Positions 7,544 to 34,005 of a stretch of 34,939 bases of DNA are shown one piece after another; within the stretch, counting starts at the first letter, position 1, and each line of letters begins with the position of its first letter. The stretch lies in IMG/VR virus record IMGVR_UViG_2541047957_000002. One strand, written 5' to 3'. The notes beneath the pieces were generated by a model that saw nothing but the letters and a program-made list of their open reading frames with translations, ran no database searches and was not told where the DNA came from. Position numbers and translations under genes: made by a program. Source of the DNA: a virus. Its lineage: Duplodnaviria > Heunggongvirae > Uroviricota > Caudoviricetes.

Positions 7544-7777
7544 ATGCGCATTGAAATAATGATCGATAAAGAGCAGAAGATTAGCCAGTCTACCCTGGAC
7601 GCTCTGGAGTCCGAGCTTTACCGCAACCTGCGCCCCCTGTATCCCAAAACGGTAATTCGTATCCGCAAAGGTAGCTCTAACGGTGTGGAACTTACCGGAC
7701 TGCAACTGGACGAAGAAAGAAAACAAGTGATGAAAATTATGCAGAAAGTGTGGGAAGACGACAGCTGGCTGCATTAA
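7544..7777 (+). CDS. DinI-family protein
   Basis: MRIEIMIDKEQKISQSTLDALESELYRNL...KIMQKVWEDDSWL resembles E. coli DinI (MRIEV...ETWESADDWF); GAGGTG RBS; second gene behind the LexA box. Confidence 0.75.
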   Translation: MRIEIMIDKEQKISQSTLDALESELYRNLRPLYPKTVIRIRKGSSNGVELTGLQLDEERKQVMKIMQKVWEDDSWLH

Positions 7778-7912
7778 GAAACGTTGCTGGCGTCTGAACT
7801 TGCTTCTGGCGTCAGCAAGGTTGAACAACGAGCCCTTGCGAGGCGTTAGCTCTGTAGTGCATGTCTATGCCGCATGAGATCGCATGATCGTTTGAGGATC
7901 GTTTTTGCTAAG

Positions 7913-7936
7913 GCCCGCCAGAACTGGCGGGCTTTT
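7913..7936 (+). terminator. Rho-independent terminator ending the SOS module
   Basis: Perfect hairpin GCCCGCCAG-aa-CTGGCGGGC followed by TTTTGCG. Confidence 0.6.
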
Positions 7937-7981
7937 GCGTAGATCATGCAGGTGCATGAAAACCACTGCATAAAGCGGGCA

Positions 7982-8000
7982 GGCGTGGCGGGGATACGAG
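7982..8000 (+). other. Candidate cos site (cohesive-end sequence)
   Basis: GGCGTGGCGGGGATACGAG followed by CGCGCGC. The first 13 nt are identical to the 186 cohesive end as I recall it (GGCGTGGCGGGGAAAGCAT) and close to P2 (GGCGAGGCGGGGAAAGCAC); it lies on the expected side of portal gene Q. Confidence 0.5.
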
Positions 8001-8101
8001 CGCGCGCAACAGTGTAACAATCTGGATCTAATGTGATATAGTTACTGTAAATATTATTAACTATTCTTATATGCATTATTAAATATTTTAATGGAGCGTT
8101 T

Positions 8102-9775
8102 ATGGAAAAATATCAAGATGAGGAATATGTAGATGATTTAACTGAGCGTGTTTTTCTCATTAAGCAACAACTGGAAGCGGGAAAACTAAAAATAGCTCAT
8201 CATCTTGTAGAAGGTTTTATTGAAAGTTTTAAAAGAATAAGGCTGCGACAGGATGGTAAAGTTGACCCTTCTACTGTTGATGGCAGAATAAGGGCTATGG
8301 GAGCAGCGGTTAATCACTTTTTAGAAAGAGAAGATATAAAAAACAAATACTCTATTCAGGACTTGCAAAGTTCTTACTTTAATATTCTTTTTAGTAATTT
8401 TGGCGAGTTGTTTTATCTGATGAAAAAAACTAATGCAACGCCACATAAAGCATCAAGTTTTTTTTCTCAACAAGAAGAATATGTTAAGCAAATAGAAGAT
8501 ATTTTTCCTGAGTTATATAATCAGGTAATAGAGTTTTGGCAGGTAACATCCGATATTGGTGTAATACATTTGCAGGATGGTTCTCAGTTTAAAGCTAATT
8601 TTTCTGGTGACTTATTTCCTGCATTTGATGAGAATGCTGTCTCTATTGCAGGGTTGTATGTTGATACTATTTCACTTCCATGTCCTATATTAAGAGTCGG
8701 TCGTCTCTATGAAAAGTCAGATAAGGCTGAGTTTACAAGGATACTTCTGAAGCATGTCCTAACATGTATGACATATAAAGAAGTAGCGCTTGAAGATATA
8801 GAGCCAGCAATAGTATTAATTTTGCCGGATAGAAGAGATTTTGAAACTGAGAGCAAAAAAAATTTGATGAGTTTTTGTGAGCCTTATGCTCTGACTCATG
8901 CGCAATATCTCTATGATCGACGGTTCGAAAGCTACGATGAACTTCGAGATTTTAGTTATTCGATGAATGATATTGATGCTGTTCTTAAAAATATTAAGAG
9001 AGCAGATAGACTTATTTTTGATACAGCATGGGGGCTAAATCCAAAAACTCAATTAGAAAAACTACTATCTGATAAAAAAAGAATATCACGTAATGTTGTT
9101 GGTGATCATGCTGGAATGGAGGTTTTCCTTTCCTGCATTGGAAGAATGCCGCAAGCCTATTCAGCAAAATGTAATGCACAAGAACTTGGTAGTACTCCAT
9201 ATATAAATGCAGACACATCTTGGCTCTATTATACTTGGCTTATTGAGTACGAATCTCTTAATTTTGATGTCAATGATATTGAACTAAAAAATTTGCATAT
9301 GGTTCATGCGTTATCTGCTGGTATGCAAGATGGTTTTTCATGGTTAGGAAATGTACCGGTCAATAAAATAATTGAGTTGAGACGTAACAAATTGATGGAG
9401 GATGTAAGATCCATCTTATCAAATGGTGTTGACTCTTTAATCAATTCTTCGGCAGAGAGCTTTTCGAGGACAACGCAAAAAGTAATTGATAATGTAGACC
9501 GGGCTTTTATTGAACATCAAAGGATTCTTGCAAAAGCCCAAAAAGAGAAATTGAGAATTTACGGACTAGATGTCCTACCATGTATCGCAAATGGTGCTAT
9601 AGCAATTGCTGGAGCGCTGACTGGCAATACTACTTTAACGGCGTTAAGTGCAGGCCTTGGAGTAATAGGTATTCCGAGTATTAGTGATATCAAATCTAAA
9701 TTTAAGCAGAGGCAAGAGAAGCTTGATGCCTATCAACGTTCTGTTACAGGTATACTCTTTAGCCATAAATCTTAA
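8102..9775 (+). CDS. AT-rich orphan protein (557 aa), unknown function; candidate anti-phage/abortive-infection cargo with C-terminal hydrophobic Gly/Ala-rich segment
   Basis: Long uninterrupted ORF in a markedly AT-rich block (first 60 nt are 30% GC by count; flanking phage genes look far more GC-rich by eye) with RBS GGAG and its own downstream hairpin. C-terminal segment LDVLPCIANGAIAIAGALTGNTTLTALSAGLGVIGIPSI (about 9565-9685) looks like a membrane or glycine-zipper element. No Walker A or other motif recognised. Confidence 0.75.
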   Translation: MEKYQDEEYVDDLTERVFLIKQQLEAGKLKIAHHLVEGFIESFKRIRLRQDGKVDPSTVDGRIRAMGAAVNHFLEREDIKNKYSIQDLQSSYFNILFSNFGELFYLMKKTNATPHKASSFFSQQEEYVKQIEDIFPELYNQVIEFWQVTSDIGVIHLQDGSQFKANFSGDLFPAFDENAVSIAGLYVDTISLPCPILRVGRLYEKSDKAEFTRILLKHVLTCMTYKEVALEDIEPAIVLILPDRRDFETESKKNLMSFCEPYALTHAQYLYDRRFESYDELRDFSYSMNDIDAVLKNIKRADRLIFDTAWGLNPKTQLEKLLSDKKRISRNVVGDHAGMEVFLSCIGRMPQAYSAKCNAQELGSTPYINADTSWLYYTWLIEYESLNFDVNDIELKNLHMVHALSAGMQDGFSWLGNVPVNKIIELRRNKLMEDVRSILSNGVDSLINSSAESFSRTTQKVIDNVDRAFIEHQRILAKAQKEKLRIYGLDVLPCIANGAIAIAGALTGNTTLTALSAGLGVIGIPSISDIKSKFKQRQEKLDAYQRSVTGILFSHKS

Positions 9776-9781
9776 TGTAGA

Positions 9782-9809
9782 GGGCCGAGGTATTCGGCCC
9801 TTAGTTTTA
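9782..9809 (+). terminator. Rho-independent terminator of the AT-rich cargo gene
   Basis: Hairpin GGGCCGA-ggtat-TCGGCCC followed by TTAGTTTTA; overlaps the stop codon of Q on the other strand. Confidence 0.55.
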
Positions 9810-10835
9810 TATGAAACTGTATGGCATGAATTTTATTATGTCATCTTTGAGCCATTTATTGAGTTCTTCTATTCTGTTTTGTAGCGGTATCAATTCATTA
9901 CGCATAAAAACCTTACTAGCCTTCTCCACATCCCCAAATCCCCCAACATTATTCGGCATTATCCCCATCATTTGCGGCGGCACTCGGTGTGCTGCCATCA
10001 TGTCATCCCGGCTCACGTTCTTGATATTCAAAAATTCATCCTTTGCCGCGACTTCTGACAGAGGAATAATCTGAAGCCCGTCTTTTTTGCCGTTAGGCGA
10101 GTACATAAACAGGTTGCGGAAGTTGCCTGGACCTTTGGCGCTTTTCATCGCGTTACGGAGATTGTTTACATCTTCCTGGTTCTGCGCGGCGTCGGTCATG
10201 TACATGATGAAGCCTGCATGGCTGCCGTTGATGTAATACTTACGGCGGAACAGCGTGGCGGACTCGTTGAGCAGGGCTGACGGAATGGCAGAAAGATAAC
10301 CGGGCAGGCCGTAGATCTCCTGGTTGATATCTGGTTCCATCAGATGAAAAATGCTGCCTTTCGTGAACTGATACGGTTGCGTGGTCATACCGTATTGCAC
10401 AAACCAGTAGGTATCCAGGTCTAACCCGCGTCGGGTATATTTTGCCAGGGCAGGCTCAAGAGCGATAATTTCACCGAACCGGTTCGTGCGTTTCTCCAGA
10501 TAGGCGTTACCAAATACCAGATAGTCCTGCACAAAACGTGAAAAAGCCTGCTGGCTGAGCAGCGGGTGAGGGATGTAGGTGCTGGTCAGAATGTTGCACT
10601 TTACTGCAATCGGGGAACTATGATGAACGGCAGCGCGGAAGGTGCGCGCCAGTCCGTCAAAGCTGACGGGCGGCTCATACCAGCGGTCCATCTGTACGCA
10701 TTCCACATAATCCAGCAGTTCTCGGCGGTCCAGAACAGGAACGGGATCGCCGAAGCTGAATGCTTCGGCTGTAGTTTGACTTTTAAGCTGGATCTGTTTC
10801 GTCGCCGCAGCGCGGTTCTTCTTACTCTTTCCCAT
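9807..10835 (-). CDS. Q: Portal protein (P2 gpQ)
   Basis: 342-aa ORF in the conserved position and orientation next to terminase P (track begins at TTG 10838; ATG at 10835). Confidence 0.88.
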   Translation of the reverse strand: MGKSKKNRAAATKQIQLKSQTTAEAFSFGDPVPVLDRRELLDYVECVQMDRWYEPPVSFDGLARTFRAAVHHSSPIAVKCNILTSTYIPHPLLSQQAFSRFVQDYLVFGNAYLEKRTNRFGEIIALEPALAKYTRRGLDLDTYWFVQYGMTTQPYQFTKGSIFHLMEPDINQEIYGLPGYLSAIPSALLNESATLFRRKYYINGSHAGFIMYMTDAAQNQEDVNNLRNAMKSAKGPGNFRNLFMYSPNGKKDGLQIIPLSEVAAKDEFLNIKNVSRDDMMAAHRVPPQMMGIMPNNVGGFGDVEKASKVFMRNELIPLQNRIEELNKWLKDDIIKFMPYSFI

Positions 10836-12601
10836 CAAAAAAACTCCACAATATTGCTGGTATTGGCGGATTCGCCCTGCAGCGGTTCGTTAAACAGTGC
10901 GTGCATCGTTGCCCAGGCCAGATCGGCGTGGCTGGCTTCTTCGCTGCGGCTGGCTTCATAGGTCGGGCGGTTGCCACTGGCGGTGGTGGCGCGACGGATT
11001 GCCATAAAGGACTGCGCTATGTCGGTGTGTCCGGCGTCAAACTCCAGACGGCGGTGGCTGATAATGTCGTAGGCCTTGAGTACCAGGGCGTTTTTAACGT
11101 TGGGGTTGTAGACAAACTCCCGGACGGCAGGAAAAAACGCTTTCACGTTCTCGTAAACCCCGTGACCAACGCCGGTTGAGTCGATACCGATATAGGTCAC
11201 GTTGTACTGTTCGGTCAGTTTTTTGATGGCGTCAGCCTGGGCGCGGAAGTCCATTCCGCGCCACTGGTGACGCTCAAGAATGCGGAACTTACCGCCCGGC
11301 ACGGCTGGCGGCGCCACCACCACGCATCCGGCGCTGTCGCCGTTCTGCGTACCTTTCGCCGGGTCATATCCGATCCACACTTCGCGCCAGCCAAACGGGC
11401 GCAGGGCCAGTGCATGAAAGTCGGTCCAGACTTCCCAACTGTCCACCATGCACGCCTGCAGCTCGCTGAGTGGGAACACAGACGCGAGATCGTCCACGAA
11501 CTCACACATCAGCAGGTTCTGGTATTCGTCCGGGCTGTACTCCATGCGCAACTGGTCGAGGTCGAACAGGTTACAGCCGCCGCGCACCGCATCTTCCACA
11601 GTGACTATCTGGCGGTACTGCCCGTCTGCGCACAGCAGGCCGGGGGCCAGATTGCTGTGGGACAGGTCGATGTCCACCTTATCGGCTTTGTTGCGCCCTC
11701 GGTTGAACAGCGCACCGGACCAGAACGGATAAGCACTGTGTGTCAGGCTGGATGGCGTGGAAAAATAGGTTTGTCGCCATTTTTTGTGAATAGCCATACC
11801 GGAAGCCACTTTGCGCAGCTCCTGGAATTTCGGTATCCAGAAATATTCATCCAGATACAGGTTGCCGTGGTAACTCTGGGCCGTGCGGGCATTGGTGCCG
11901 AGGAAGTACAGCGTGGCCCCGTTAGGAAGCACCATCGGATCGCCTTTCAGCTCCACCTCCACTTCTTTGGCGAAGTCGATGATGTACTGCTTAAAGACGT
12001 GGGCCTGAGCCTTGCTGGCGGAAAGGAAAATCTGGTTACGCCCGGTTAGCAGGGCGTCAATCAGGGCTTCACGGGCAAAATAGAAGGTCGCGCCGATCTG
12101 GCGTGACTTCAGCAGGTTGCGGATGCGGTTGGTTTTTCCGGCTTCCCACCAGTGGCGCTGGTAGTTGAACATGGAGGAATGGAAGATTTCTTCCAGCTTC
12201 TCAATCTGTTCATCGGTGAAAACGTTCTTTTCCGGCTGACGGCGCGGGCCTTTGTTGCGGTTGGCGACGTTAGGGTTTAAGTCGGCTTCGTTGCCGCCAT
12301 TGTTAAACTTGCCGATCCGCGCATGGCGCTCCGACTGGCGCGCCAGCAGGTCAATCTCTTTGAAATCTTTCCCTTCTTTGTGCTCCTTCATAATGAGCTG
12401 GCAGTAGCGTGCGGCGGTGGTGAGCTGCATCTGATCCAGCGGCCCATAGTCACCCCACTTGTCGCGTTTTTTCCAGCTGTGAACGGTTGCAACTTTCTCG
12501 CCCAGCATTTCAGCAATGCGGGCTACGCGGTATCCCTGAAAGTACAGCAGCATGGCCTGCCGACGGGGATCGAGATCTGCGGGTGTCAGTGTGGTGTTCA
12601 T
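10835..12601 (-). CDS. P: Terminase large (ATPase) subunit (P2 gpP)
   Basis: 588 aa, divergent from capsid gene O, co-oriented with Q; P2-family terminase arrangement. Confidence 0.9.
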   Translation of the reverse strand: MNTTLTPADLDPRRQAMLLYFQGYRVARIAEMLGEKVATVHSWKKRDKWGDYGPLDQMQLTTAARYCQLIMKEHKEGKDFKEIDLLARQSERHARIGKFNNGGNEADLNPNVANRNKGPRRQPEKNVFTDEQIEKLEEIFHSSMFNYQRHWWEAGKTNRIRNLLKSRQIGATFYFAREALIDALLTGRNQIFLSASKAQAHVFKQYIIDFAKEVEVELKGDPMVLPNGATLYFLGTNARTAQSYHGNLYLDEYFWIPKFQELRKVASGMAIHKKWRQTYFSTPSSLTHSAYPFWSGALFNRGRNKADKVDIDLSHSNLAPGLLCADGQYRQIVTVEDAVRGGCNLFDLDQLRMEYSPDEYQNLLMCEFVDDLASVFPLSELQACMVDSWEVWTDFHALALRPFGWREVWIGYDPAKGTQNGDSAGCVVVAPPAVPGGKFRILERHQWRGMDFRAQADAIKKLTEQYNVTYIGIDSTGVGHGVYENVKAFFPAVREFVYNPNVKNALVLKAYDIISHRRLEFDAGHTDIAQSFMAIRRATTASGNRPTYEASRSEEASHADLAWATMHALFNEPLQGESANTSNIVEFF

Positions 12602-20449: not shown

Positions 20450-21047
20450 TCTGCTGCCACCGGGTTCAACTTCACTGGAGCGCCGACTGGCGCAAACCTG
20501 TAGCGGGATTTCTGATTTGCAGGTGCCGCTGCGTGACTTGTGGAATCCGGCTACCTGTCCGGTCAGCTTCCTGCCTTATCTCGCCTGGGCGTTCTCTGTG
20601 GATCGCTGGGACGAGGGCTGGACAGAAAGCGTCAAACGCCAGGTAGTGAAGGATGCTTTTTATATTCATCAGCATAAAGGAACCACCAGTGCCGTGCGGC
20701 GGGTGGTGGAACCGTTCGGATTCCTGATCCGCATTATTGAGTGGTGGCAGACCGGAGAAACACCGGGCACGTTTCGCCTGGATATCGGCGTGCAGGACCA
20801 GGGCATCACTGAAGATACCTATCTGGAACTTGAGCGACTGATAAGCGATGCCAAACCATGTAGCCGCCACATGATCGGCATGTCCATCAATCTGCAGACC
20901 AGCGGCCCGCATTGGGTGGGAGCCGCCAGCTATCTTGGCGAAGAAATCACGATCTATCCGTATATCAACGAAACGATTATTTCCGGTGGCACCGCGCATG
21001 AAGGCGGGGCGGTCCATGTTATTGACACAATGAGAGTGAATCCATGA
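20442..21047 (+). CDS. I: Tail protein I (P2 gpI)
   Basis: 201 aa, between J and the tail fibre gene H. Confidence 0.8.
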   Translation: MNSLLPPGSTSLERRLAQTCSGISDLQVPLRDLWNPATCPVSFLPYLAWAFSVDRWDEGWTESVKRQVVKDAFYIHQHKGTTSAVRRVVEPFGFLIRIIEWWQTGETPGTFRLDIGVQDQGITEDTYLELERLISDAKPCSRHMIGMSINLQTSGPHWVGAASYLGEEITIYPYINETIISGGTAHEGGAVHVIDTMRVNP

Positions 21048-22675
21048 GCACAAAATTTTATACCCTGCTGACGGATATTGGCGCGGCGAAACTTGCCAGC
21101 GCCGCCGCGCTCGGTGTGCCGCTAAAAATTACCCATATGGCGGTGGGCGATGGCGGTGGAGTATTGCCAACGCCGGACGCAAAGCAGACGGCACTGGTAA
21201 ATGAGAAACGCCGGGCTGCGCTGAATATGCTTTATATCGACCCGCAGAACAGCAGCCAGATTATTGCCGAACAGGTGATCCCTGAAAACGAGGGCGGTTG
21301 GTGGATACGTGAAGTGGGCTTGTTTGATGAGTCCGGGGCATTGATTGCCGTGGGCAACTGCCCGGAAAGCTATAAGCCGCAACTGGCTGAAGGTAGCGGG
21401 CGCACTCAGACCGTGCGCATGGTGCTGATTACCAGCAGCACGGACAATATCACCCTGAAAATCGACCCTGCTGTAGTGCTGGCAACCCGCAAGTATGTGG
21501 ATGACAAGGCACTGGAGCTGAAGGTGTACGCGGATGATCAGATGGCAAAACATCTTGCCGCACCGGACCCGCATTCACAGTACGCGCCAAAAGCCAGCCC
21601 GACATTTACCGGAACCCCCAAAGCGCCAACGCCAGCGGCGGGGAATAATACCACGCAGGTTGCGACCACTGCGTTTGTACAGGCGGCACTGACGGCCCTT
21701 ATTAATGGTGCGCCAGCCACGCTGGACACGCTGAAAGAAATAGCCGCAGCCATTAACAATGATCCGAATTTCAGTACCACCATTAACAATGCGCTGGCAC
21801 TTAAAGCACCGTTGTCGAGTCCGGCACTCACCGGAACGCCAACAGCCCCCACGGCGGCGCAGTCGGTCAACAATACACAGATTGCCACTACGGCTTTTGT
21901 GAAATCGGCGATTGCAGGAATGGTGGGTTCTGCACCTGCTGCACTGGATACACTGAACGAACTGGCGGCGGCACTGGGGAATGATCCGAACTTTGCCACG
22001 ACAATGCTTAATGCGCTGGCAGGTAAACAACCGCTGGACAATACGCTTACCAATTTGAGTGGAAAGGATGTAGCTGGTCTTCTCACATACCTTGGTATCG
22101 GAGAAATCTATGCACCGATCAACAGCCCGTCGTTTACTGGTACCCCGTGCGTGCCAACAGCGGACCAGTCTGAAATAGATTTTCGTATTGCAAATACCGC
22201 ATTTGTTGCTCAGGCCATTGCGATTCTGAATGGCGGTGCACCTGCCGCATTGAACACACTAAAAAAACTGGCGTTGGCAATTAATAACGACGCTAGTTTT
22301 TATTCCACAGTAAACAATGCACTGGGACAGAAGGCCGCTCTGTCAGACTTTACATATTCCAAAACCAGTTCGTCTGTTGTAGGTAATCAACCGGGTGGAC
22401 TTCGTTTTATGTGTGGAGAAACATCTGTGCCGACAGATTCAAACGGCAATGTGTTTATCACATTACCTGACACGTTTTTAAATCGGGTTGTTTATGCAGA
22501 GGCACATCAGTCTAAAGGCAGCTATACCGCTGATGTGGAGCCTTTTATTTTCTCATCATACCCCACTTCGAATGGCCCAACTTCGACGATTTCGTTTGCA
22601 GTACGCAATTCTAAAACAGGTGTTCCGCTAATAAACTCAGCAATTACTCTCCAATATTTTGTTAAGGGCTACTGA
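21044..22675 (+). CDS. H: Tail fibre protein H, constant N-terminal part plus currently expressed variable C-terminus
   Basis: 543 aa; N-terminus matches the P2 gpH type (MSTKFYTLLTDIGAAKLA...); internal tail-fibre repeats; contains the left inversion crossover site. Confidence 0.9.
   Translation: MSTKFYTLLTDIGAAKLASAAALGVPLKITHMAVGDGGGVLPTPDAKQTALVNEKRRAALNMLYIDPQNSSQIIAEQVIPENEGGWWIREVGLFDESGALIAVGNCPESYKPQLAEGSGRTQTVRMVLITSSTDNITLKIDPAVVLATRKYVDDKALELKVYADDQMAKHLAAPDPHSQYAPKASPTFTGTPKAPTPAAGNNTTQVATTAFVQAALTALINGAPATLDTLKEIAAAINNDPNFSTTINNALALKAPLSSPALTGTPTAPTAAQSVNNTQIATTAFVKSAIAGMVGSAPAALDTLNELAAALGNDPNFATTMLNALAGKQPLDNTLTNLSGKDVAGLLTYLGIGEIYAPINSPSFTGTPCVPTADQSEIDFRIANTAFVAQAIAILNGGAPAALNTLKKLALAINNDASFYSTVNNALGQKAALSDFTYSKTSSSVVGNQPGGLRFMCGETSVPTDSNGNVFITLPDTFLNRVVYAEAHQSKGSYTADVEPFIFSSYPTSNGPTSTISFAVRNSKTGVPLINSAITLQYFVKGY
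21596..22345 (+). repeat. Three tandem tail-fibre repeat units within gene H
   Basis: Repeated peptide pattern SP.FTGTP.APT...NT.IATTAFV..AI....AP.ALDTL.ELA.A..ND..F..T..NAL starting at about 21596, 21818 and 22124. Confidence 0.6.
22080..22105. promoter_or_regulatory. Left inversion crossover site (hix/gix-like 26-bp site) inside gene H
   Basis: TTCTCACATACCTTGGTATCGGAGAA is an inverted repeat of the site at 24148-24173 and resembles the hix/gix consensus; both encode the same peptide frame. Confidence 0.6.
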
Positions 22676-23094
22676 TGAAAATATTTTACAGTCCATCGTT
22701 GAATGGTTTTTTACTTGAGGCGACAGCAGAAGAATATGACGGGGAGGATTTAACAGAGGTTAGTCAGGACGTATACAATCAGTTTATTGCAGGTTCAGAA
22801 ACTCAAATCATGGTTGCCGGTAATAGTGGCCCTGTGTGGCAGGATGCGCCGGGGCCGACACAGGAAGAACTGACTCAGGCGGCAGAGTATGAGCGCCAGC
22901 GGCGAATATATGACGCTAACGATTTCATGAACAGCAAACAATGGCCTGGTAAAGCAGCTATTGGTCGTCTGAAAGGTGAGGAACTGGCACAATATAATTT
23001 GTGGCTGGATTATCTGGACGCACTGGAGCTGGTCGATACCGCCAGTGCGCCAGATATTGAATGGCCTACGCCTCCGGCAGTTCAGGCCAGATGA
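22675..23094 (+). CDS. G: Tail fibre assembly chaperone (P2 gpG / Mu U-like)
   Basis: 139 aa, ATG overlapping the H stop; C-terminal motif APDIEWPTPP shared with the inverted paralogue. Confidence 0.8.
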   Translation: MKIFYSPSLNGFLLEATAEEYDGEDLTEVSQDVYNQFIAGSETQIMVAGNSGPVWQDAPGPTQEELTQAAEYERQRRIYDANDFMNSKQWPGKAAIGRLKGEELAQYNLWLDYLDALELVDTASAPDIEWPTPPAVQAR

Positions 23095-23668
23095 CATCCG
23101 GCGCGGTGCTGGTATCTGTTGCCGTCACCGCGTCAATGTAATCCAGCACAGTGTTAAGGCTGGTTGTTTCTGCCTGCGTCAGTTTACGTCCGGCCTGCAA
23201 TTTCAGCTGAATCAGACTGATTGAAGCCATTGCAGTATCAATCAGTGACTGGCGCTGTGCTTCTGCTGCATCTACTGCGGCGCTATGCTGTGCTTCGGTA
23301 TCCGTCACCCATTTCTCACCATCCCATTTATCGTATGGCGTTAACGGGGCGATAGTGGTTGTATTATCAGGGTAATCACCCGGAGCTGTGATTTCTTTTG
23401 ATTCTCCTGTTTCGGTGCTAAAGACGATTTCACCGCGATGGTCTGGCACATATTCCCATGAGTTAAAATCTGCAGAACGGCAGATTGCATAACCAGCTTT
23501 GTATGCGCCTGGAGCATCTAAACAGGAATATGCCGGAATGCCGACACCAACAGCAAGATATTCAGTTGAAGCTGAAATATACTCCCGTGTCTCACTGTCA
23601 TAGTTATAAACGGTAATATCTCCTGCCTTTGTGGCAATTAATTCACTGTTTAATTCTGCGTTATTCAT
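23066..23668 (-). CDS. Alternative tail fibre assembly chaperone (tfa', inverted orientation)
   Basis: 200 aa, convergent with G and overlapping it by 29 bp at the 3' ends; C-terminal APDVIWPELP motif. Confidence 0.7.
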   Translation of the reverse strand: MNNAELNSELIATKAGDITVYNYDSETREYISASTEYLAVGVGIPAYSCLDAPGAYKAGYAICRSADFNSWEYVPDHRGEIVFSTETGESKEITAPGDYPDNTTTIAPLTPYDKWDGEKWVTDTEAQHSAAVDAAEAQRQSLIDTAMASISLIQLKLQAGRKLTQAETTSLNTVLDYIDAVTATDTSTAPDVIWPELPEA

Positions 23669-24201
23669 TATGCGGCCCTCACAATATAGTTAAAAGCGAT
23701 ATTTCGTGGGCGCGTTTCATTCGCACCTGCAGGTTTAGTCGTTGCAGCAACAACACCACCCTCTGTAATAGCCGGGTTAGGAATTGGGTAATTATCGAAG
23801 TCAATGGCCGGAGACAAGGGCGTGATTTGTTTTAAAATCGTGGTGCCTGTAAAACTTTCCAGAGTCTGGTCGTTAGTTCGTGAAGTCCAGATTCCCCAAT
23901 AGTGGTTATGACTGACAATCGCACCGTCCTGAAGCGTTAATAATCCCCTTCCGTTATCCACTCCACGCCCGTCATCCCAGCCACGAATAAACTCACCGCG
24001 TAAATCAGGTAATTTATTTGTCGGATAAGCCTTTGCCAGTTCCGGGTATTCTTCAGCAGAAAAAGCTGCTCCGTTGCATTTTAGCCAGCCTGTCGGCGGA
24101 GTGGCTGAAGGCCACGGAACAGGCACCCCAACCGGTAATGCAGAGCCTTCTCCCAAACCAACGTTTATGAAAATGCAGAGATAACGGCTAACTGGCATCA
24201 T
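23668..24201 (-). CDS. Alternative tail fibre variable C-terminal segment (Hv'), silent in this orientation
   Basis: ORF carrying a tail-collar-like motif GWLKCNGAAFSAEEYPELAKAYP; its 5' region contains the right crossover site in frame with the H site, so inversion would fuse it to the constant part of H. Confidence 0.7.
   Translation of the reverse strand: MMPVSRYLCIFINVGLGEGSALPVGVPVPWPSATPPTGWLKCNGAAFSAEEYPELAKAYPTNKLPDLRGEFIRGWDDGRGVDNGRGLLTLQDGAIVSHNHYWGIWTSRTNDQTLESFTGTTILKQITPLSPAIDFDNYPIPNPAITEGGVVAATTKPAGANETRPRNIAFNYIVRAA
24148..24173. promoter_or_regulatory. Right inversion crossover site (hix/gix-like)
   Basis: TTCTCCCAAACCAACGTTTATGAAAA matches the Hin hix consensus TTCTTGAAAACCAAGGTTTTTGATAA at 20 of 26 positions and lies 50 bp upstream of the invertase gene. 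Confidence 0.65.
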
Positions 24202-24222
24202 CCCCGGTTTTTATTCAGGGGA

Positions 24223-24795
24223 TTGATCATGCTTATTGGCTATGTCCGCGTGTCAACAAATGACCAGAACACCGATTTGCAACGTAATGCACTGAACTGC
24301 GCGGGATGTGAGCGGATTTTTGAGGACAAAATCAGTGGCACTAAGTCCGACAGACCGGGGCTGAAAAAACTACTCAGGACACTATCGGCAGGAGACACGC
24401 TGGTTGTCTGGAAGCTGGACAGGTTGGGGCGCAGTATGCGGCATCTTGTTACGCTGATAGAAGAGTTGCGCCAGCGTGGTGTGAATTTCAGAAGCCTGAC
24501 TGACAGTATTGATACCAGTACCCCAATGGGCCGTTTCTTTTTTCATGTCATGGGTGCCCTGGCTGAAATGGAACGCGAACTGATAGTTGAACGTACCAGG
24601 GCAGGGCTGGCTGCAGCTCGTGCCAAAGGCAGAGTAGGTGGACGCCGTCCTAAGTTGACCACCGAACAGTGGGCACAGATTGGGCGTTTACTCGAGGCCG
24701 GAGAATCAAGACAGCGTATTGCACTGATTTTTGATGTAGGCGTTTCTACCATTTATAGAAAATTTCCGGCAAATAAGATCAATGAATCCCCCTGA
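24223..24795 (+). CDS. Serine DNA invertase (Hin/Gin/Pin/Cin family)
   Basis: 190 aa; N-terminal catalytic region GYVRVSTNDQNTDLQ and C-terminal HTH; classic resolvase/invertase architecture next to an invertible tail-fibre cassette. Confidence 0.9.
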   Translation: MIMLIGYVRVSTNDQNTDLQRNALNCAGCERIFEDKISGTKSDRPGLKKLLRTLSAGDTLVVWKLDRLGRSMRHLVTLIEELRQRGVNFRSLTDSIDTSTPMGRFFFHVMGALAEMERELIVERTRAGLAAARAKGRVGGRRPKLTTEQWAQIGRLLEAGESRQRIALIFDVGVSTIYRKFPANKINESP

Positions 24796-32319: not shown

Positions 32320-34005
32320 TTATCCTAATCCTGGCCATACCATGACGATGATTGTCCCTGCCAGCGTCAGCAGGACGTTGGCGATTGCGTAGGTGCCCGC
32401 ATAGCCCAGCGCAGGGATGTTACTGCGAGCTGTATCACTGATGATCTCCATTGCCGGCGCGCAGGTGCGTGCGCCCATCATTGCGCCGAACAACAGTGCG
32501 CGGTTCATTCGCAATACATAAGCACCGAACAAGAAACAGATAACCACGGGCACAAGACTGACAATTAATCCGGCAATCAACATCTGACCGCCAATCGCGC
32601 CCAGGCCGTTATTAATACCGCTACCGGCGCTCAGACCAACGCCTGCCATAAACACCATCAAGCCGAACTCTTTCACCATGCTTAATGCACCTTGCGGAAT
32701 GTAACCGAAGGTCGGGTGGTTAGCACGCATAAAGCCCAGCATAATTCCGGCGAATAACAACCCGGCAGCGTTCCCCATGCCGAAACTGAATGTGCTGAAC
32801 TGGAAGGTGATCATCCCGATCATCAGCCCAATAACAAAGAAGGCGCAAAATGCCAGCAGGTCAGTGACCTGGCTGTGAATCGAGATAAAGCCGATGCGAT
32901 CGGCGATGGTTTTTACGCGACGGGCATCACCGCTGACTTGTAAAACGTCACCTTTGTTAAGCACGACGTTGTCATCTATCGGCATCTCAATCTGGCTACG
33001 AATGACGCGGTTAAGGAAGCAACCGTGATCGGTCAACTTCAGTTGTGCGAGACGTTTACCTACAGCGTTATGGTTTTTAACGACCACTTCTTCAGTGACG
33101 ATACGCATGTCGAGAAGGTCACGATCGAAAACTTCTTTACCGTTACGGAAGCTGGGATCGAGTCGGGCATGGGCGTCGGGATAGCCTACCAACGCTATTT
33201 CATCGCCCATTTGTAGCACGGCATCACCGTCTGGATTTGCCAGAATCCCGTTACGTCGAATACGTTCAATGTAGCAGCCGGTTTGTCGATAAATACCCAG
33301 TTCACGCAGATTTTTGCCGTCGGTCCAGGCCACCAGCTCCGGGCCGACGCGATAGGCGCGGATCACCGGTAAATAAACCTTACGGTTGGCATCAGTGTCC
33401 AGGCCACGTTCGCGGGCGATTTGCTGGGCGCTGGTCTGTAAGTCCTGATGCTGCAATTTCGGCAAGTAACGCGCACCAACAATCAAACTCACCAGACCGA
33501 TTAAATAGGTTAAGGCATACCCGAGGCTCAGATTATCCAGTGCCAGTGAGAGCTGCCTGCTTTCCATGCCGGAATGACGCAGTGTATCGCCAGCACCGAC
33601 CAGAACCGGTGTCGACGTCATAGAGCCTGCTAACATACCGGCCGTCAGGCCAATATCCCAGCCAAACAGCTTACCTAACCCTAAGGCGATCACCAGCGCA
33701 CTGCCAACCATCACCAGTGCTAACATTAGGTAATTTTTCCCATCGCGAAAAAAAATGGAAAAAAAGTTCGGTCCGGCTTCGACCCCGACGCAGAAAATAA
33801 ACAGCATAAAGCCAAGATTAAGCGCATCGGTGTTAATGCTGAAATGTTGTTGGCCTAATAACAGCGATACGACTAAAACGCCAATGGAATTACCCAGTTG
33901 GATCGAACCAAGTCGTAACTTTCCGAGACATAGCCCAAGCGCGAGGACCACAAATAATAACAGAATGTAATTCCCATTTAACAATTCGGCGACGTTTATA
34001 TTCAC
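32320..34005 (-). CDS. ybjL: Putative transporter YbjL (AAE family), host gene
   Basis: 561-aa translation [29 protein letters not shown]... recognised as E. coli YbjL; multiple TM segments. Confidence 0.9.

Follow-up and report, generated by a model that had tools for sequence, protein, structure and literature searches.

Does the tail-fibre operon of this prophage carry an inversion switch that exchanges the tip of the fibre, and does the segment in fact occur in both orientations? We addressed this question in a window of 34,939 nucleotides, by which we mean the whole stretch of DNA that was analysed. Judged by its gene content, the prophage is a P2-like (Peduoviridae), apparently complete prophage of E. 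coli, in which the P2 late-gene order V-W-J-I-H-G-(hotspot)-FI-FII-E-T-U-D is present along with the gpA replication gene and the Q/P/O/N/M packaging and head genes, and the P2-type tail and baseplate gene set is complete. The gene order was derived from the Pfam families assigned to adjacent genes in identical loci, the ORF map of the window, matches to GPA and integrase, and the P2 reference order. The latter also bears out the position that a first-pass annotation had given to the cassette, namely the slot between G and FI in which P2 carries fun(Z). The features of the locus are as follows.

21044-22675, plus strand: full H ORF in the present orientation, 543 aa, with N-terminal PF12571
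21044-22079, plus strand: constant N-terminal part of H (aa 1-345), outside the invertible segment; PF12571 (Phage_tail_fib) over aa 1-150
22080-22105, no strand assigned: left crossover site (pix/gix/hix-like), TTCTCACATACC-TT-GGTATCGGAGAA, core TT at 22092-22093, dyad symmetry 10/12
22094-24159, no strand assigned: invertible segment, bounded by the core dinucleotides of the two sites and measuring 2,068 bp from one centre to the other, from the in-silico flip; inverted in contig L013
22106-22675, plus strand: Hv, the variable C-terminus of H that is currently expressed, 189 aa
22675-23094, plus strand: tfa, P2 G-like tail-fibre assembly chaperone and partner of Hv; PF02413 (Caudo_TAP, E 9e-25), phrog_188
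23066-23668, minus strand: tfa', TfaE-like tail-fibre assembly chaperone and partner of Hv', silent here; PF02413 (Caudo_TAP, E 3e-32)
23668-24147, minus strand: Hv', variable C-terminus of the alternative fibre, carrying a tail-collar domain and silent here; PF07484 (Collar, E 9e-16), phrog_523
24148-24173, no strand assigned: right crossover site, TTCTCCCAAACC-AA-CGTTTATGAAAA, core AA at 24160-24161, dyad symmetry 8/12
24229-24795, plus strand: serine DNA invertase of the Pin/Gin family, 188 aa; PF00239 and PF02796

By its ORFs this arrangement has the layout of the Mu G-segment type, with the constant 5' part outside, alternative 3' parts in opposite orientations inside and a reading frame that stays open both ways, and each variable part is followed by its own chaperone, which gives two convergent Caudo_TAP genes. 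The ORFs and their Caudo_TAP and Collar domains agree with the earlier proposal that tfa and, in inverted order, an alternative tfa' and Hv' lie between the sites. The two chaperone genes overlap by 29 bp and their products share the motif APD(I/V)(E/I)WP at their C-termini (..SAPDIEWPTPP.. and ..TAPDVIWPELP..), both of which had been noted before and were found again. In relatives, the constant part of H is 96–99% identical and collinear as far as the left site, where homology breaks off. The Hv' ORF extends across the right site (23668-24201, minus strand).

The two 26-bp sites had been proposed to form an inverted repeat, and the recomputed alignment indeed matches them as such at 20 of 26 positions. 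Their central dinucleotides, TT and AA, are complementary, which is what inversion requires. Since the longest exact run is 6 nt and the pair contains no 9-nt exact seed, a repeat search with default seeds did not report it, and the pair was verified by direct comparison. The right site is identical at all 26 positions to the right site of the e14 P segment and contains CCTTCTCCCAAACCAA, the repeat reported for e14 inversion (PMC12529663). When compared with hixL, the left site matches at 19 and the right site at 20 of 26 positions. Mu gix, read from NC_000929 in the same register, is matched at 16 and 17 of 26 positions. Across the sites, H reads ..Y-L-G-I-G-E.. and the reverse ORF ..N-V-G-L-G-E.., so that the motif L/V-G-I/L-G-E is encoded in the same frame in both, as the first-pass annotation had stated.

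Inversion of about 2.1 kb had been predicted to fuse the constant part of H to Hv'. When the segment is flipped in silico at the core dinucleotides, the constant part is joined in frame to Hv' in a 513-aa fibre, and the start of tfa' overlaps the H::Hv' stop codon (TAATG). This fibre occurs with 100% identity and coverage in public E. coli assemblies (P0121), as does the silent ORF of 207 aa that the flipped state was predicted to contain (P0233, 100%/100%), and the present 543-aa H protein is likewise found in databases. Fusion of Hv' to the constant part of H is seen in P0121, in L005 and in phage 500465-1. On the nucleotide level, the E. coli contig L013 (GCA_054662595.1) differs from the predicted flipped window by 5 mismatches in 8,896 nt, and its hybrid site, TTTTCATAAACG-TT-GGTATCGGAGAA, is exactly as predicted. 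By this comparison L013 represents this prophage in its flipped state (99.94% identical), and its hybrid site shows, as read from the assembly, that exchange took place at the core. A related prophage in the sister strains ZH48 and ZH49 has flanks that are 100% identical and a homologous segment of 1,841 bp that is inverted between them. Both types of junction are frequent: among 5,426 complete E. coli genomes, 442 contain the H::collar-Hv' junction and 957 the Hv'-site-invertase junction. As judged from these assemblies, both orientations are shown to occur in nature at exactly these sites, which match to the base the points where homology breaks and the junction of the natural inversion, and the comparative evidence indicates that the segment inverts by exchange at the core dinucleotides. 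Inversion in P2-like E. coli prophages has been demonstrated experimentally before (Goldberg 2014), in EPEC P2-like prophages inversion and phase variation were demonstrated by WGS and PCR (PMC4272514), and inversion of the e14 P segment by PinE and PinQ has been measured by qPCR (PMC12529663).

Two further observations in the assemblies were considered and rejected. Several contigs end at window positions 22947-23102, which might be taken for mixed orientations; these ends look like repeat-induced breaks, because they fall where the tfa/tfa' sequence common to other prophages begins (window 22915 onward). Another contig, L010, was examined as an invertase-mediated event between loci, but since its homology switches near window 23723, away from the site, it more likely reflects a chimera or rearrangement mediated by repeats.

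The gene placed at 24223-24795 had been assigned to the Hin/Gin/Pin family. While the family assignment stands, the start is most likely the ATG at 24229 rather than the TTG at 24223, since the start is called in this way in relatives. The protein matches PF00239 (E 2e-53) and PF02796 (Resolvase and HTH_7), aligns end to end with the Gin structures 3UJ3 and 4M6F (E 1e-92) with a conserved RVSTNDQ motif, and shares 87% amino acid identity with PinE and 75% with Mu Gin. A mutation of the catalytic serine, which would point to an inactive enzyme, was looked for; the ORF is intact, Ser9 is unaltered and Arg42 is present. In Hin, contact with Fis and the enhancer is made by K47, K/R48, K/R51, Q151, R154 and L155, residues which are kept in invertases and not in resolvases (PMC3798978). 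All of them are present here as K46, K47, R50, Q150, R153 and L154, with an offset of -1 relative to Hin. The cis-acting recombinational enhancer of Fis-dependent invertases comprises a pair of Fis sites and usually lies within the 5' portion of the invertase gene. In the corresponding 5' region, which has 83.6% nucleotide identity to pinE, a Fis-consensus scan gave weak matches only and located no enhancer, no conserved pair or spacing of Fis sites relative to gin was found, and a profile of third-codon-position identity against gin likewise located none. A scan for promoters and terminators did not rise above shuffled sequences, in that no invertase promoter was predicted above background and no terminator was identified between the cassettes.

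To place the locus among characterized systems, we compared its parts with those of known invertible segments. The likeness to the Mu G segment that had been proposed is borne out for the layout of the switch, but by sequence comparison the closest relative is the P-segment/Pin system of e14 rather than Mu G/Gin or Hin. In this cryptic prophage of E. coli K-12 (stfP-tfaP / tfaE-stfE / pinE), the order is the same as here: constant part, site, variable part with chaperone, inverted second chaperone with second variable part, site and invertase. The alignment to known segments that the first-pass annotation had suggested gives, besides the identical right site, 65% amino acid identity of Hv' to StfE and 90% of tfa' to TfaE; the 3' part of tfaP is also shared, and the cassette is found in its entirety, with 98.1% nucleotide identity, in one e14-like element. 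Inversion of the e14 type has been shown experimentally (PMC4272514, PMC12529663). In contrast to e14, which is defective and has a Mu-type baseplate, the prophage whose H gene bears the cassette here is P2-like and apparently complete. The left site has an unrelated outer half (TTCTCACATACC in the window, CTCTCGAAAACC in e14), the constant part is unrelated as well, Hv as the variable part now expressed is different from StfP, and the segment spans 2,068 bp instead of 1,797 bp. The Mu G segment with Gin (Sc-Sv-U / U'-Sv') and the P1 C segment with Cin follow the same logic, with the invertase gene likewise immediately to the right of the segment, and Mu gix shares with the present sites the 26-bp register and the coding context L-G-x-x-E. 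However, gix forms perfect 34-bp repeats with a TC core, to which the sites here show only the partial match given above, the chaperones share only about 30% identity with U and U', the G segment measures about 3 kb and the phage backbone is different. Salmonella Hin/hix resembles the present system in its invertase family, in 26-bp sites whose core is AA/TT and in the conservation of the residues that contact Fis, whereas a promoter is flipped there and coding cassettes here.

Loci in P2-like phages and prophages (EPEC E2348/69; 500465-1, pro483, Cartapus; Z/fun hotspot) share the phage family, the G-FI slot and the invertase family, and DNA invertases with inverted neighbouring genes have been noted at the Z/fun hotspot (bioRxiv 10.1101/2024.10.15.618418). 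In the Peduoviridae phage 500465-1, the flanks are 98.5% identical to the window and the collar module lies in the opposite orientation. Unlike the other P2-like loci, the window combines the collar cassette, which is common, with an Hv that is rare and was absent from all 5,426 complete E. coli genomes searched, and while one EPEC prophage has a three-repeat shufflon, only two sites are present here.

We conclude that the locus is very probably a two-state site-specific inversion switch of the Pin/Gin type in the tail-fibre operon of a P2-like E. coli prophage. Dimers of the invertase would bind both 26-bp sites, cleave at the central TT and AA, and, by a 180-degree rotation of half of the synaptic tetramer, invert the 2,068-bp segment, while the promoter would remain outside together with the first two-thirds of H, its constant 5' part. 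In the present orientation Hv would complete H and be followed by tfa, whereas in the opposite orientation the collar-domain Hv' would complete H, followed by tfa'. A population of lysogens would then release particles with either of two receptor-binding tips. For this switch we infer dependence on Fis and an enhancer, the rate of inversion and a change of host range on flipping.

Three other accounts of the locus were weighed against this switch. The inverted repeat might have arisen by chance, with the convergent cassettes being a simple duplication or insertion without site-specific recombination. Taken alone, the 20/26 repeat is indeed not significant: in 30 shuffles of the 6-kb region a mean of 0.33 such inverted pairs occurred, with at least one pair in 7 of the 30, so the case for the sites draws on other evidence. 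Each site is internally dyad-symmetric, the two cores are complementary, and in a scan of the whole window with a PWM built from these same sites they score 31.8 and 29.3, where shuffled sequences reach 16.1 at most, the left site being the highest-scoring position and both far above every other one. The full match of the right site to e14 and the coincidence of the sites with homology breakpoints and inversion junction likewise speak against a chance origin, and L013 together with the ZH48/ZH49 inversion already refutes this account, whose probability we regard as negligible. As the same scan found no third crossover site in the whole window, a shufflon was rejected as well.

Alternatively, the second cassette and the invertase could be relics from e14-like or other phages in a frozen mosaic that has lost inversion. 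The imperfection of the sites (20/26, and 8/12 dyad symmetry on the right), the fact that the five contigs encoding the exact H protein all show the same orientation, the outcome of the Fis-consensus and promoter scans and the occurrence of the same cassette beside a truncated invertase in e14-like elements would fit such a decayed state. It is nevertheless very improbable, given that a 99.94% identical prophage has the flipped segment and the exact hybrid site, that the invertase is intact with complete catalytic and Fis-contact residues, that the right site equals an experimentally active e14 site, and that orientation differs between the sister strains. Somewhat less remote, though still unlikely, is the idea that the switch serves the host, mainly or additionally, in that the short ORF adjoining the invertase would be expressed in the lysogen and block adsorption of other phages. 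This ORF is a 177-aa stfE-like frame at present and a 207-aa chimera with the Hv tip after the flip; it starts with ATG, reads outward through the right site in both states and is annotated by gene callers in many genomes. The kinship with the e14 P segment (identical right site, PinE, TfaE) adds to the appeal of this idea, as inversion by PinQ or PinE creates StfE2 in e14, an inhibitor of T2 adsorption (PMC12529663). On the other hand, the complete P2-type tail and baseplate set means that a function in the virion suffices for the switch, no promoter is predicted for the ORF, its run past the site may merely reflect a missing stop codon, and its distal Hv part is unrelated to StfP. If it were true, functional P2-like prophages, beyond cryptic ones, would provide phase-variable superinfection exclusion activated by a recombinase.

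Under the preferred reading of a tail-fibre switch, inversion swaps the fibre tip and probably, with it, the hosts attacked. Hv has no Pfam match, and PHROG tail-fibre repeats match over aa 1-90 only; its distal ~100 aa, which belong to no Pfam family, are the putative receptor-binding part. Homologues of Hv come from E. coli drafts, Citrobacter, Hafnia and Enterobacter, and a contig scan with Hv peptides returned a single partial relative from Trabulsiella (55% identity), which is uninformative on orientation. Since Hv and the Collar-domain Hv' are unrelated in sequence, it is likely but unproven that they use different receptors.

The device is real but well known: its anatomy, the in-frame fusion and the intact enzyme are established here, tail-fibre inversion switches of this kind were known already, and the current understanding is unchanged. 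The result is of use mainly for annotation: H, both tfa genes, the fragment labelled "phage tail protein" and the "recombinase family protein" belong together as a single functional unit, and an assembly, whichever orientation it shows, captures one moment of a population that is mixed. Hv, as a rare expressed tip without family assignment, could be of interest for the engineering of receptor-binding proteins. Finally, a P2-like phage and an e14-like element whose cassettes are 98% identical present a clean case of the exchange of a tail-fibre module across unrelated backbones.

The tail-fibre cassette was placed by the first-pass annotation in the slot where P2 carries Z/fun, a position borne out by the P2 G-FI interval, which contains fun(Z). 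Its features are the following.

Features of the tail-fibre cassette, in window coordinates
21044-22675, + strand, H, tail-fibre gene, 543 aa, PF12571 at the N-terminus (ORF map; Pfam/PHROG scans)
22080-22105, left crossover site, TTCTCACATACC-TT-GGTATCGGAGAA, dyad symmetry 10/12
22106-22675, + strand, Hv, the expressed tip of H, 189 aa
22675-23094, + strand, tfa, tail-fibre assembly gene, Caudo_TAP
23066-23668, - strand, tfa', second assembly gene, convergent with tfa, Caudo_TAP
23668-24201, - strand, Hv' ORF, phage tail-collar domain PF07484
24148-24173, right crossover site, TTCTCCCAAACC-AA-CGTTTATGAAAA, dyad symmetry 8/12
24229 (ATG, likely start) to 24795, + strand, serine recombinase (invertase), 188 aa, Resolvase and HTH_7
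from 24938, FI, tail-sheath gene, downstream of the invertase

The ORF coordinates agree with the previously noted 29-bp overlap of tfa and tfa'. An invertase gene does follow the right site as claimed, but its proposed TTG start at 24223 gives way to the likelier ATG at 24229, which yields 188 aa and is the start called in relatives. Elsewhere the window carries the genes of a P2-type prophage (integrase, gpA, Q/P/O/N/M, V-W-J-I and FI-FII-E-T-U-D), and it is 100% identical across 11.6 kb to E. coli GCA_000461695.1 scaffold KE702598.1. The window start falls within the phage integrase gene (1-1188, - strand). At the window end lies an Asp-Al_Ex/TrkA_C transporter gene (32320-34005, - strand) that is already past the prophage, which puts the right prophage end after ogr/D (about 31.8 kb) and before 32.3 kb. 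The P2 old/tin hotspot, flanked by gpA and the portal gene Q, holds a 557-aa ORF (8102-9775, + strand) that matched nothing in Pfam or PHROG and whose sole PADLOC match, to DitB, is weak (E 3e-9); this may be defence cargo that has yet to be characterised.

The two 26-bp sites had been described as inverted repeats, and on recomputation 20 of 26 positions agree, with complementary central dinucleotides (TT/AA). Such a pair is not significant alone, as a shuffled 6-kb region yields a mean of 0.33 pairs of this kind, and an automated repeat search did not pick up the left/right pair. That the sites are real rests instead on four other observations. The right site agrees at all 26 positions with that of the P segment, the invertible segment of the E. 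coli K-12 cryptic prophage e14, and contains CCTTCTCCCAAACCAA, the repeat reported from the e14 inversion junction (PMC12529663). Mu gix (NC_000929) aligns in register with both sites at 16-17 of 26 positions. A half-site matrix scan gives this pair scores of 31.8 and 29.3, against 11.8 for the next best position and a shuffle maximum of 16.1, and a third crossover site was not found anywhere in the window. Finally, homology breakpoints in relatives coincide to the base with both sites.

Inversion had been predicted to fuse the constant part of H to Hv', and this is what an in-silico flip of the window between the core dinucleotides produces: an uninterrupted 513-aa H::Hv', the stop codon of which overlaps the tfa' start (TAATG), while a 207-aa silent ORF with Hv comes to adjoin the invertase. 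Public E. coli assemblies contain exact copies of both the predicted flipped fibre (protein P0121) and the 207-aa ORF (protein P0233), with identity and coverage of 100% in each case. P0233 is encoded on contig L013 (GCA_054662595.1), which agrees with the flipped window predicted in silico at all but 5 of 8,896 positions. Its hybrid site, TTTTCATAAACG-TT-GGTATCGGAGAA, is also the predicted one: at the core, the right site's outer half meets the left site's inner half. Such a junction marks conservative site-specific exchange at these sites within this lineage of prophages. A second, independent line of support for the inversion model, likewise by comparison of assemblies, is a related prophage in the sister pig isolates ZH48 and ZH49, whose flanks are 100% identical around an inverted 1,841-bp segment. 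Among 5,426 complete E. coli genomes, the H::collar-Hv' junction is present in 442 and the Hv'-site-invertase junction in 957.

Several short-read contigs (L006, L007, L012 and L013) stop inside the 3' portion of tfa or where tfa and tfa' overlap (window 22915-23102). A mix of orientations was considered and rejected as the reason; sequence that other prophages share (e14-type tfaP/tfaE) starts there, and this coincidence makes the breaks look repeat-induced. Another arrangement is seen in the metagenome contig L010 (ERZ1304128 NODE_680, 7680-11632), where H/tfa/tfa' resembling those of the window continue into a different collar variant and the right site has another outer half, TTATAAAAAAGG, followed by a 182-aa resolvase and chromosomal yciI/yciA/yciB/yciC; the P2 tail operon is otherwise absent. 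Since homology switches near window 23723 and not at the crossover site, L010 probably represents a repeat-mediated chimera or rearrangement.

Over its full length the invertase can be aligned with Gin (structures 3UJ3 and 4M6F, E 1e-92). Its identity to Gin is 75% and to the e14 invertase PinE 87%, and the RVSTNDQ motif and Ser9 are intact. In Hin, K47, K/R48, K/R51, Q151, R154 and L155 are conserved in Fis/enhancer-dependent invertases and not in resolvases (McLean et al., PMC3798978); all are found here at an offset of -1 (K46, K47, R50, Q150, R153 and L154). A recombinational enhancer was not located by a Fis-consensus scan or a codon-third-position comparison with gin, and a promoter/terminator scan gave nothing above shuffles.

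Hv has no family in Pfam, its distal ~100 aa are without family assignment, and it was found in none of the complete E. coli genomes searched. Its occurrence is confined to some draft E. coli genomes and to Citrobacter, Hafnia and Enterobacter, in which the homologues are silent ORFs of 200-350 aa; most homologues are annotated as hypothetical, with one Buttiauxella relative named 'pyocin knob domain-containing'. By these searches, Hv is a rare cassette within a common switch.

Of the known systems, the e14 P segment with PinE is closest in sequence and layout, having the same arrangement, an identical right site, and TfaE and StfE at 90% and 65% identity. An e14-like element whose baseplate is of the Mu type carries the whole cassette (window 22089-24364) with 98.1% identity; the constant part there is a different one, and homology begins within the left site. 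The contigs concerned (L014-L017; e.g. L014 6001-10540) carry Mu gp45-48-type baseplate genes, and have an invertase gene truncated to 63 aa; after it, where K-12 e14 has mcrA, comes a GmrSD type IV restriction gene. In the P2-like Escherichia phage 500465-1 the flanks are 98.5% identical and the collar module has the opposite orientation; E. coli ATCC 8739 has the orientation of the window, but another cassette replaces Hv. For P2-like prophages of EPEC E2348/69, inversion has been demonstrated with sequencing and PCR, at one locus as a simple two-state switch and at another as a three-repeat shufflon (PMC4272514), and a P2 hotspot survey recorded DNA invertases, and neighbouring genes that are inverted, at Z/fun (bioRxiv 10.1101/2024.10.15.618418). 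These precedents thus already describe the type of element, the family it belongs to and where it sits.

When the e14 P segment inverts, it is reported to give rise to a chimeric protein, StfE2, which blocks T2 adsorption (PMC12529663). That the short ORF next to the invertase may likewise act in the lysogen is a minor possibility. The sites, the in-frame flip, the flipped contig and the invertase confirm the initial observation of an invertible cassette and support its interpretation; the mechanism is very likely a Pin/Gin-type inversion which, with a possible effect on host range, would switch the tail-fibre tip together with its chaperone.
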